Source: Promethearchaeia archaeon
Lineage (GTDB): Archaea > Asgardarchaeota > Lokiarchaeia > Sigyniarchaeales > SOKP01
NCBI GenBank assembly: GCA_046497275.1
Contig: JAWOFX010000050.1
Location: forward strand, 1 to 32,000
Direction: 5' to 3'
Length of the DNA: 32,000 bases
The translations under genes were made by a program, and so were the position numbers. The notes beneath the pieces were generated by a model, which saw only the letters and a list, made by a program, of their open reading frames with translations, was not told where the DNA came from and made no database searches. The first letter of the stretch is position 1; each line of letters begins with the position of its first letter. Positions 1,087 to 3,450 of this stretch are shown here, in pieces.

Positions 1087-3450
1087 TTAAAGCTGGATTG
1101 AACGAGCTAACACATTTTTGAATTTCTCAACATCATCACCAAGTTTCTCTGCGTCGTCATCCGATATACTTTCATCTTTCTCATATTTATTTAATACCGT
1201 TAGCCAATACTCAATCCGTCCTAATATAGGGTTATCATCTCCTAATATTTTTCTAAGTCTGACAAAGGTATCATGAAGCTTATTACGAATGTTAAGTGCC
1301 TTCCATTTCAACATGCAATAATCGCTTATTTCCGCAAGATTTTGCGTTATAGCCATAACATCGATTGTTTTCTCTCTTTCATCTGCTCTTATTTTTCTAA
1401 TTATATTAATTTCTTCAAATAAAATCTCAATAACCTTTGCTAGAAATCCTGTTAACTGTCCTGGATTTGCACACCACACTCTAACTTCTAAGGATTGATT
1501 AGACTCAGAAACATAAATTCTAGTAACTATCCGTCCACCTGTGACCTTTGCTTCCGAACAAAACCATGCTTCAGCACGATAACTTTTTTGATTTTCTGCA
1601 TCCTCATGAGAAGTAATCATACTCGTTTCAAAGTTTTTTAATGCTCTAATTGCAGCTCTAAAAGCTAGGCGTGGATCTAAATCAGCAATTAAAAAGGCTC
1701 GAGCATCATTAGGGAGAGATGATATAGCTGTCTGACAATCCTCCATTGTTGATAAAGAAGTACATACCAATGGGCATTTTATTTGAACTTCCTTTTTCCT
1801 AACTGGAATTGAGGTTTGTTTCCCTTTTGCATTTTTATAAATTACTGTTCCGCTAATATTAGAGATACCACATTCTTTAGGCTCAATGTAAAAATCTACG
1901 CCTCTCGAATTCCCACTTTCAATAACCGGAACATTTATCATAGGTTCTTTTATTTTATAACTTGATGGTGCATCCAATATTACTTTCACATTATTTATAG
2001 CCATGCTGCTATTATTTCGAATAACGACCTTGAATCGAACCTGACCTCCAACAAAATCATATTCCCGTACGACTTCAATTTTATCTTCATCTTCATGATG
2101 AATTTTCTCTTTATTTTTAGCAGGAGAATATTGGCGAACAGATGAAACACTATAAGCTACAAAAAGTTTCTTAGCCATATCAATGTACCCATCAATCTCG
2201 CCTTTTCCAATTAATTGAGCTAACATTTCCTCTATACTAGACTCAGTCACCCCAATTCTATTAGATAATTCTTTAAGTGGCATTGTCCTATATGCTTTTG
2301 CTATTTCTTTTATACGCCTTTCAAGATGTTTTTCTGTAATAAATTCTCGTCGTTGCGTAAATATTCCCTTTAATCTCCCATTTTTTATCAAATCATGAAT
2401 GCTTCGACGTGCTAATTCAATTGCAATTTTTAATTCATCTGCTAATTTTTTCAGTTCAAATTTCCCATGATCATCAGCATATTTCAAGATTTCTTTATAA
2501 ATTTGATCTGATGTAATTATATCATTCCCACGATCTGCAAAAAAGGCGGAAATTTCATCCGTTCTCATTAAATTTACACAAAATGATTTCATTAAATCTT
2601 TTGGAATATTAAACTGATCAGCTAAATCTTTTAAACTTAATCTTCCTTCCTTATTAATGCTTTTAATGGTCGTTGATGTGATATATTTTTGAGTATAATA
2701 TGTTTTTTTATCTAAAGTGAATGAACCTTTTATTTGATATTTTGATATAAGTTTATAAATTATTTTTAATGCTATTTCTGAACTCATATCCAACATTGTT
2801 GCAATATCGGCCACTTTAATAATGCCCTCATCATTGAATTTAGCTAATAATTTTTCCTTAATATCAGGAGGAATATAATAAAACATCTTATTTTTTCTAT
2901 CTAAAATACCATAAATTCGCTCTTCATTAAGATATTTTTCGATTAATTTTACCATTTGATCTTCTTGTAAATTAAATGAGCTTGTTACGGTAGAAAAATT
3001 TGTAATAGAAGAGCGCATTAATAAATCCAAAAAGCATTTAGGACAGATTTCTTTACCTTCATAATGGCTTAATTTTTTTCCGCATAATCTGAACCCCTCA
3101 ATTAAACCATATCTATTTGCTTCTCTTGCTAATTTATCTTTAGAAGCAAAAAATAATCCTGGTGTATTCAGATATGAATTCCAGGAGCAATTTGTACATT
3201 GCAAATAATACTGACCTGAAGAAAGTTTATCTAGTTGAAGTAAAGATTCACATTCAGGGCATTTACTGTCCTCCACTACAGTACAACGATAATTTGTTTC
3301 AGATGCTTTCGCTTTTGAATACTTTACGTTATGTTTCTTACATTCCCATTGCTCTGTAGTAGCCATATGATTAATACAAAAACTAGAACTACATTTCTCG
3401 CATCTGAACTCAATTTCTTTACTCTCACAGAATAAACATTTCGATTCCAT
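1087..3450 (-). CDS. Multidomain protein: N-terminal zinc-binding region, five PCI/UFL1-like winged-helix repeats, coatomer/adaptin-like appendage (beta-sandwich + platform), C-terminal helical bundle
   Basis: 787-aa ORF. CxxC/CxxH motifs at aa 5-139; ~60-aa repeats at aa ~140-432, the last being PCI-consensus (YRTMPLKELSNRIG..EEMLAQLIGKGEIDGYID); beta-strand-rich aa 457-560; alpha/beta aa 575-681. Confidence 0.7.
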   Translation of the reverse strand: MESKCLFCESKEIEFRCEKCSSSFCINHMATTEQWECKKHNVKYSKAKASETNYRCTVVEDSKCPECESLLQLDKLSSGQYYLQCTNCSWNSYLNTPGLFFASKDKLAREANRYGLIEGFRLCGKKLSHYEGKEICPKCFLDLLMRSSITNFSTVTSSFNLQEDQMVKLIEKYLNEERIYGILDRKNKMFYYIPPDIKEKLLAKFNDEGIIKVADIATMLDMSSEIALKIIYKLISKYQIKGSFTLDKKTYYTQKYITSTTIKSINKEGRLSLKDLADQFNIPKDLMKSFCVNLMRTDEISAFFADRGNDIITSDQIYKEILKYADDHGKFELKKLADELKIAIELARRSIHDLIKNGRLKGIFTQRREFITEKHLERRIKEIAKAYRTMPLKELSNRIGVTESSIEEMLAQLIGKGEIDGYIDMAKKLFVAYSVSSVRQYSPAKNKEKIHHEDEDKIEVVREYDFVGGQVRFKVVIRNNSSMAINNVKVILDAPSSYKIKEPMINVPVIESGNSRGVDFYIEPKECGISNISGTVIYKNAKGKQTSIPVRKKEVQIKCPLVCTSLSTMEDCQTAISSLPNDARAFLIADLDPRLAFRAAIRALKNFETSMITSHEDAENQKSYRAEAWFCSEAKVTGGRIVTRIYVSESNQSLEVRVWCANPGQLTGFLAKVIEILFEEINIIRKIRADEREKTIDVMAITQNLAEISDYCMLKWKALNIRNKLHDTFVRLRKILGDDNPILGRIEYWLTVLNKYEKDESISDDDAEKLGDDVEKFKNVLARSIQL

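Follow-up and report, generated by a model that had tools for sequence, protein, structure and literature searches.

An Asgard archaeal protein with a predicted zinc-binding head, UFL1/DDRGK1-type winged helices, an adaptin/COPI-type appendage and a Vps28 C-terminal bundle

Open reading frame and domain order

The window analysed here comprises 32,000 nucleotides (positions 1 to 32,000 of contig JAWOFX010000050.1, assembly GCA_046497275.1) of a Promethearchaeia archaeon affiliated with the Lokiarchaeia. It is AT-rich, with a G+C content of about 30%, and is part of a 3.85 Mb genome with a completeness of 98.9%. A single uninterrupted open reading frame (ORF) with an ATG start, 787 codons and no internal stop was located at positions 1087-3450 of the reverse strand. 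From the N- to the C-terminus, its product carries a zinc-binding head (predicted), five winged helices of the UFL1/DDRGK1 type, a variable linker, an adaptin/COPI-type appendage and the C-terminal bundle of Vps28 (Table 1). The gene belongs, as an orthologue, to an Asgard family that has been published but not characterised by experiment, and its product is a soluble, single-copy, non-enzymatic multidomain scaffold.

Structure models were calculated with AlphaFold for aa 1-450 (predicted local distance difference test score, pLDDT, 88) and aa 440-787 (pLDDT 92, from 67 diverse relatives). The models were compared to known structures with Foldseek and with an independent VIA search; the resulting lists barely cover residues 1-136. 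The closest database relatives were full-length (780-797 residues) and 66-90% identical. Where they were named, they were designated 'PCI domain-containing protein' or 'DUF2042 domain-containing protein' of Lokiarchaeota or Promethearchaeota. A chance resemblance is excluded because Pfam and PDB profile scores were significant and full-length orthologues of 66-90% identity occur in many genomes. A search for a membrane segment or N-terminal anchor across the protein revealed no hydrophobic stretch (maximum KD19 = 1.39), by which the protein is predicted to be soluble.

Table 1. Features of the ORF and its neighbours, with window coordinates
Feature	Residues (aa)	Window position	Strand	Basis
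Whole ORF P0001	787 aa plus stop codon	1087..3450	(-)	Full-length orthologues at 43-90% identity
First zinc module, predicted eight-ligand cross-brace type, AN1-like	1-55	3286..3450	(-)	C5, C8, C17, C20, C25, H28, C37, H40
Predicted zinc ribbon (C64, C67, C85, C88) and further invariant cysteines (C56, C123, C136, C139)	56-136	3043..3285	(-)	
Five tandem winged helices, UFL1/DDRGK1 (PCI-like) type	137-432	2155..3042	(-)	Pfam, profile, Foldseek, VIA
Codon inside wH2 that corresponds to the DDRGK1 C-terminus and to the point where the winged helices of UFL1 begin	~219	2794..2796	(-)	Chain alignments
Variable, probably flexible linker	433-457	2080..2154	(-)	pLDDT <50 for 437-450; 7% identity to distant orthologues
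Ig-like beta-sandwich	458-557	1780..2079	(-)	Model, fold matches, conservation
Alpha/beta platform (TBP-like) subdomain	558-662 (modelled 562-660)	1465..1779	(-)	Fold matches
Long helix and Vps28 C-terminal four-helix bundle (bundle ~688-785)	663-787	1090..1464	(-)	Pfam VPS28, VIA
Downstream neighbour, ribbon-helix-helix (CopG/NikR-like)		554..976	(-)	Pfam RHH_1 E 0.0048
Upstream neighbour, DsbD_2-type membrane protein		3632..4363	(-)	Syntenic in first family only

Winged-helix array

Five H-E-H-H-E-E units were modelled at aa 137-192, 195-253, 254-313, 314-372 and 373-432 (wH1 to wH5), in agreement with the five repeats of about 60 residues that an earlier sequence-only reading of this stretch had placed at aa ~140-432. 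Pfam PCI (PF01399) was matched in five stretches with 83.9 bits, above its curated cut-off. Matches were also obtained to E3_UFM1_ligase (PF09743) at aa 222-432 (71 bits, cut-off 23.2) and to DDRGK (PF09756) at aa 136-200 (44.6 bits, cut-off 27.8). The best structural match was the human DDRGK1-UFL1 chimera 8b9x (Foldseek E-value 5.9e-14, template modelling score of 0.70 on the target; VIA Z 14.7, 243/255 residues aligned), followed in the fold ranking by UFL1 within 60S-bound complexes. The first unrelated tandem winged-helix protein was SelB with an E-value of 2.6e-5. The array is not a generic MarR-type fold, because SelB trails UFL1/DDRGK1 by nine orders of magnitude; the proposed likeness to UFL1/DDRGK1 was thus borne out.

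A profile of the family aligned to the 8b9x chimera at positions 139-342 (E 1.5e-17), and this alignment ran unbroken across the DDRGK1/UFL1 junction. Native DDRGK1 chains aligned to profile positions 138-218 and native UFL1 chains to positions 220-426, starting at UFL1 residue 26 (8ohd_A numbering). Since the DDRGK1 chains stop at 218 and the UFL1 chains start at 220, the eukaryotic break lies inside wH2 of the Asgard protein. wH1 corresponds to WH1' of DDRGK1, wH2 to the composite pWH'/pWH and wH3-5 to WH1-3 of UFL1. In the human complex, the pWH/pWH' domain is built by DDRGK1 and UFL1 together (PMC10937380). Because this domain is made of two half-folds, we infer as the simplest explanation that the eukaryotic pair of UFL1 and DDRGK1 arose when one continuous array was split. 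An explicit statement of such a fission was not found in a literature search, which is no proof of its being unpublished. An Asgard archaeal origin of UFL1 and DDRGK1, older than UFM1, has been reported (Picchianti et al. 2023, PMC10183829).

The Asgard array is thus homologous to, and colinear with, that of the UFL1-DDRGK1 (UFBP1) scaffold of the UFM1 E3 ligase, but forms one chain instead of two and is not accompanied by the membrane anchor of DDRGK1/UFBP1. Instead, the Asgard protein carries the zinc head, the appendage and the Vps28 C-terminal bundle. The UFC1-binding N-terminal alpha1 helix of UFL1 has no counterpart, the residues in front of the match to UFL1 residue 26 being the DDRGK-like half of wH2. 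The C-terminal helical domain of UFL1 and its peptidyl transferase centre (PTC) loop are likewise without a counterpart; wH5 is followed by the linker, the appendage and the Vps28-type bundle. With PCI-domain proteins (proteasome lid, CSN, eIF3) the protein shares the winged-helix subdomain, and wH5 matches the winged helices of CSN and the lid. In contrast to these proteins, no helical-repeat subdomain precedes it; each Asgard unit has one long helix before the winged helix-turn-helix.

Adaptin/COPI-type appendage

The region behind the linker was modelled as a beta-sandwich at aa 458-557, a few residues off the extent proposed before (457-560), and an alpha/beta domain at aa 562-660. The presence of the latter had been predicted correctly, whereas its limits (575-681) had been set about 15-20 residues off. 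Foldseek listed the appendages of COPI, beta2-adaptin, alpha-adaptin and gamma-COP as well as BBS9, BBS2 and BBS7 at the top, with E-values from 1e-10 to 1e-6 and with alignments of about 240 columns spanning both subdomains (COPI 9qpq_H, E 1.2e-10; beta2-adaptin 1e42, E 4.7e-9). In the VIA search, the platform matched the AP-4 beta appendage 2mj7 (Z 13.3, root mean square deviation, rmsd, 2.7, 119 residues aligned), and whole AP-2 ears were matched by 3h1z (Z 12.8, 196 aligned) and 1w80 (Z 12.3, 203 aligned). The suggested coatomer/adaptin-type appendage, including its platform, was thereby confirmed.

The bipartite fold, in which an alpha/beta platform comes after an Ig sandwich, is common to this protein, the ears of AP-2 alpha and beta2, AP-4 beta and COPI beta and gamma, and the GAE plus platform region of BBS2, BBS7 and BBS9 (Foldseek E 1e-10 to 1e-8; VIA Z 10.7-13.3). 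The Asgard protein differs from the adaptin/COPI appendages in the relative orientation of the two subdomains (rmsd 7-9 Å over both) and in a sequence similarity that stays under the Pfam thresholds (GAE_BBS1, E 0.0013, 19.4 bits, cut-off 27; Alpha_adaptinC2, E 0.038, 14.7 bits, cut-off 27.6). An adaptin trunk (HEAT/ARM solenoid) was found neither in the protein nor in the models.

The appendage is the most constrained part of the protein. Compared to orthologues with an overall identity of about 45%, it is 59-61% identical and the tail 48%. The beta-sandwich is the best conserved part (61% to distant orthologues), and conservation is lower in the winged helices than in the appendage (25-48% versus about 60%).

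C-terminal tail and its relation to Sel_Asgard

A helical region had been proposed at aa 685-787 and was found in the model at aa 663-786; what had been missed is its identity as the Vps28 C-terminal bundle. Scanned on its own, the segment aa 680-787 matched Pfam VPS28 at profile positions 89-182 of 188 with 26.6 bits (cut-off 24.5). The yeast Vps28 C-terminal domain 2j9u_A was matched by VIA with Z 12.9 and an rmsd of 2.2 Å (93 of 94 residues aligned). The C-terminal four-helix bundle is therefore common to the Asgard protein and the ESCRT-I subunit Vps28, but the N-terminal part of Vps28, which joins Vps23 and Vps37 in the ESCRT-I headpiece, is lacking in the Asgard protein.

A second relation was found for aa 590-785, which match NCBIfam NF045535 (Sel_Asgard) over positions 2-194 of 195 with 41.5 bits (E 1.3e-10). 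Sel_Asgard is annotated as a 'putative selenocysteine system protein' of about 220 aa and shares the module of platform and helical tail, although the score of the fusion protein lies far under the family cut-off of 132 bits. A BLASTP comparison of the C-terminal 228 aa with the Sel_Asgard protein of the same genome was not significant, and the relation is visible to the family profile only. The true Sel_Asgard member of this genome is a separate gene directly after SepSecS (contig C33, 2072-4319). In a survey of 301 genomes sampled across the phylum, Sel_Asgard reached its curated cut-off in 170. Its gene immediately followed SepSecS in 19 of the 20 loci that were checked, which included distant Asgard families.

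Cys/His-rich zinc head

The N-terminal Cys/His-rich region noticed earlier (aa 1-139) contains 15-16 invariant or near-invariant Cys and His residues, as judged from 27 aligned sequences of orthologues and remoter relatives (conserved ligands in Table 1). Their arrangement in CxxC-type motifs predicts zinc-binding domains. In the first module, the ligands are spaced C-x2-C-x8-C-x2-C-x4-C-x2-H-x8-C-x2-H. The family profile hit AN1 fingers in the PDB, namely Cuz1 (5ij4, E 0.027), the RIKEN AN1 domains 1wys and 1x4v, and ZFAND1 (7yab), all below threshold. Pfam zf-AN1 was matched, also below threshold, by eight of 20 family members with a best E-value of 0.0045. The module looks AN1-like and is given only this name because every AN1 match falls short of significance.

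C64, C67, C85 and C88 are predicted to form a classical zinc ribbon. Zn_ribbon_Top1 was matched by 10 of the 20 family members (best E 1.6e-5), and the RPC10 ribbon 5fj8_I was hit by the family profile with an E-value of 0.086.

Membership in a published family

Fusions of Vps28/Vps23 and adaptin/COPI C-terminal domains with E3 UFM1 ligase 1 were described by Liu et al. 2020 (bioRxiv 10.1101/2020.10.19.343400), who predicted a role in 'ubiquitin-dependent membrane remodeling' for them. Makarova et al. 2024 (PMC10936438, Table S2) list asCOG cog.003822 (see also Liu et al. 2021) with this architecture in Lokiarchaeum GC14_75, followed by a CopG/NikR-type regulator. They discuss whether Asgard proteins in which the Vps28 C-terminal domain is combined with HTH/PCI domains and an adaptin appendage may be analogues of ESCRT-0. 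All features of cog.003822 are present here: the E3 UFM1-ligase domain, the Cys/His zinc motifs, the adaptin appendage fold and the Vps28 C-terminal region. Domain list and order, Lokiarchaeia lineage and the CopG/NikR-type downstream neighbour are shared, and no difference was found, the likeness resting on the published annotation and the neighbour. Because these two studies describe the fusion and list cog.003822, the architecture is not undescribed, and the protein does not represent the undescribed system for which it had been taken.

Distribution

Among the 301 genomes sampled across the phylum, full-length orthologues were detected in two families of the window's order, namely in 62 of 68 genomes of the first family and in 6 of 7 of the second (68/75 in total), usually with one full-length copy per genome. 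Their identity was 65-80% within the family and 43-45% between families. In the rest of the phylum, mostly the appendage module was found by itself; two genomes of other families also matched part of the winged-helix array. Relatives of the appendage module were distributed over 575 protein clusters of many lengths. A wide occurrence of the architecture in non-Asgard prokaryotes, with a known function, had been named as a finding that would refute the earlier interpretation; among the best 120 full-length relatives, no named non-Asgard protein was present.

Two genomes of a sister class encode relatives of 723 residues (L026:6124-8295 and L027:6124-8295, both on the reverse strand) with the zinc head. 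In these proteins, a longer array of the UFL1/DDRGK1 type extends to the C-terminus (PCI match at 672-715), and appendage and Vps28-type bundle are absent. In another Asgard family, a protein of 1258 residues (L028:2761-6537, reverse strand) combines an ABC_transp_aux-like N-terminus with winged helices of the DDRGK/UFL1 type and an Ig (DUF11-like) region, and thus shows the same modules shuffled in a further way.

Full-length orthologues of 67-69% identity bear the NCBI labels Thor-, Heimdall-, Odin-, Hermod- and Hodarchaeota. These labels may reflect loose binning names; among the species-representative genomes, full-length copies were confined to the order of the window.

Gene neighbourhood and genome content

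The ribbon-helix-helix neighbour was kept in nine of nine loci of the first family and in neither of the two examined loci of the second. The order DsbD_2, target gene, ribbon-helix-helix gene was restricted to the first family and stood alongside other housekeeping genes. Neighbours in the second family and of the sister-class relatives were unrelated (histidine kinase, PurH, acyl-CoA dehydrogenase, glycosidase and cyclase), and no informative operon was seen among the loci compared. No functional inference was drawn from the neighbourhood. Within the window, a partial tRNA match was obtained at positions 440-497 of the forward strand (Rfam, 28.2 bits, gathering threshold 29, model positions 10-63 of 71); ARAGORN called no tRNA anywhere in the window.

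UFM1 (PF03671) was without a match in the 98.9% complete genome. The same was true for UFC1 (PF08694), a weaker negative since the UFC1 control was matched in no control genome. Ubiquitin and an E2 enzyme are encoded in the genome, the ubiquitin genes on contigs other than that of the target gene. An ESCRT cluster is located on contig C39 (7221-10902) and comprises genes for Vps22-like (+), Vps25-like (-), Vps4 (-) and Snf7 (+) proteins; of 29 related loci that were inspected, 27 retained the Vps22/Vps25 pair. A separate Vps28-like gene is present on contig C33.

Functional interpretation

We tentatively favour, with a confidence somewhat short of even, a function as an ESCRT-linked adaptor, that is, a functional analogue of ESCRT-0/ESCRT-I adaptors that acts without UFM1. 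The module of appendage and Vps28 C-terminal bundle, the best conserved portion of the protein, would plug it into the ESCRT machinery (ESCRT-II/III) and would bind short peptide motifs of partner proteins, while the client would be held by the zinc head and the winged-helix array. Docking partners would be available, because Vps22-like, Vps25-like, Vps4, Snf7 and Vps28-like proteins, ubiquitin and an E2 enzyme are encoded in the same genome. An ESCRT link has been proposed for Asgard proteins with the Vps28 C-terminal domain and an adaptin appendage by Makarova et al. 2024 (PMC10936438). Recognition of membrane-coat cargo as such, which the sequence-only reading had suggested, was not upheld, the Vps28 C-terminal tail pointing to ESCRT instead.

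Several points weigh against the ESCRT-linked adaptor. Genomic context provides no tie to ESCRT, as the neighbours are housekeeping genes and their order is lost outside the own family. The Pfam VPS28 score was barely over the cut-off (26.6 versus 24.5 bits), and four-helix bundles readily give high structural scores. To our knowledge, the sites of the eukaryotic partners of the Vps28 C-terminal domain (the Vps36 zinc finger and the GLUE region) have no identified Asgard equivalent. Platform and tail are shared with the SepSecS-adjacent Sel_Asgard protein, and therefore the module is not specific for ESCRT; this apparent relation, seen at the level of the family profile, weakens the automatic step from a Vps28 C-terminal domain to ESCRT. 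A complex prediction with alignments of the tail (aa 660-787) and of the Vps22-like and Vps25-like proteins of the genome resulted in a score of 0.00, which counts neither for nor against binding.

The same Sel_Asgard relation bears on a ribosome-associated function, which we regard as unlikely. Here, the array would sit on the large ribosomal subunit as in the eukaryotic UFL1-DDRGK1 complex, though without UFM1, and the C-terminal module would bring in other factors that serve in the handling of ribosomes, in quality control or in membrane tethering. UFL1/DDRGK1 are the only strong relatives of the array, and in humans every winged helix of the complex apart from WH1' of UFBP1 touches the 60S subunit, mostly via ribosomal proteins (PMC10937380). 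Platform and tail have a relative with a link to the selenocysteine, hence translation, machinery, and the high conservation is consistent with a conserved macromolecular partner. However, this conservation is higher in the appendage (about 60%) than in the winged helices (25-48%), the ribosome-inserting UFL1 C-terminal domain and PTC loop are lacking, and no ribosomal genes were found near the locus. We consider it quite unlikely that the protein is, in line with the idea of the sequence-only reading, an E3-like scaffold for Asgard ubiquitin, in which zinc head and winged helices would position E2~Ub on clients captured by the appendage. UFL1/DDRGK1 is a scaffold-type E3, AN1-like fingers are known in the ubiquitin/Cdc48-associated proteins Cuz1 and ZFAND1, ubiquitin and E2 are encoded in the genome, and the 'ubiquitin-dependent membrane remodeling' predicted by Liu et al. 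(bioRxiv 10.1101/2020.10.19.343400) would fit. Against these points stand the missing UFM1 and UFC1 matches in the 98.9% complete genome (the UFC1 negative being the weaker one), an AN1 assignment below threshold, the location of the ubiquitin genes on other contigs, and the E2-binding N-terminal helix of UFL1, which stayed unmatched as alignments began at UFL1 residue 26.

The continuity of the array would also agree with an unsplit, ancestor-like UFL1 plus DDRGK1, whose later split inside wH2 would explain the composite pWH/pWH' domain. At a time before UFM1 existed, its winged helices would have served to link large ribosomal subunits, or a different large client, to ESCRT- or coat-type membrane machinery; we hold this to be very unlikely. 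It is extremely improbable that the protein is a DNA-binding transcription regulator, as implied by some database names (DtxR, Lrp or ArsR family regulator). Such names occur among relatives annotated by JGI, and single repeats gave weak Pfam matches to HTH_DeoR, MarR, IclR and FeoC, but the repeats score far better as PCI/UFL1/DDRGK, i.e. protein-interaction winged helices. Moreover, five of them in tandem with an appendage and a Vps28 C-terminal bundle are not the architecture of a regulator, and the net charge is merely +1 to +3 per repeat.

Significance

To the published description of the family, this analysis adds modestly: residue-level evidence for a correspondence of DDRGK1 and UFL1 to one continuous Asgard array with the split point near aa 219, the putative AN1-like module, and the caution on platform and tail that follows from Sel_Asgard. 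Should the protein indeed resemble an unsplit ancestor of UFL1 and DDRGK1 with this tethering role, ribosome handling at the endoplasmic reticulum would have had a forerunner in prokaryotes. If the ESCRT-linked adaptor is the correct interpretation, three modules which eukaryotes employ in separate systems (UFM1 ligase scaffold, coat appendage and ESCRT-I) would be united in one chain. This would bear on the assembly of eukaryotic trafficking and ribosome quality control from Asgard parts, an idea that is already present in the literature.

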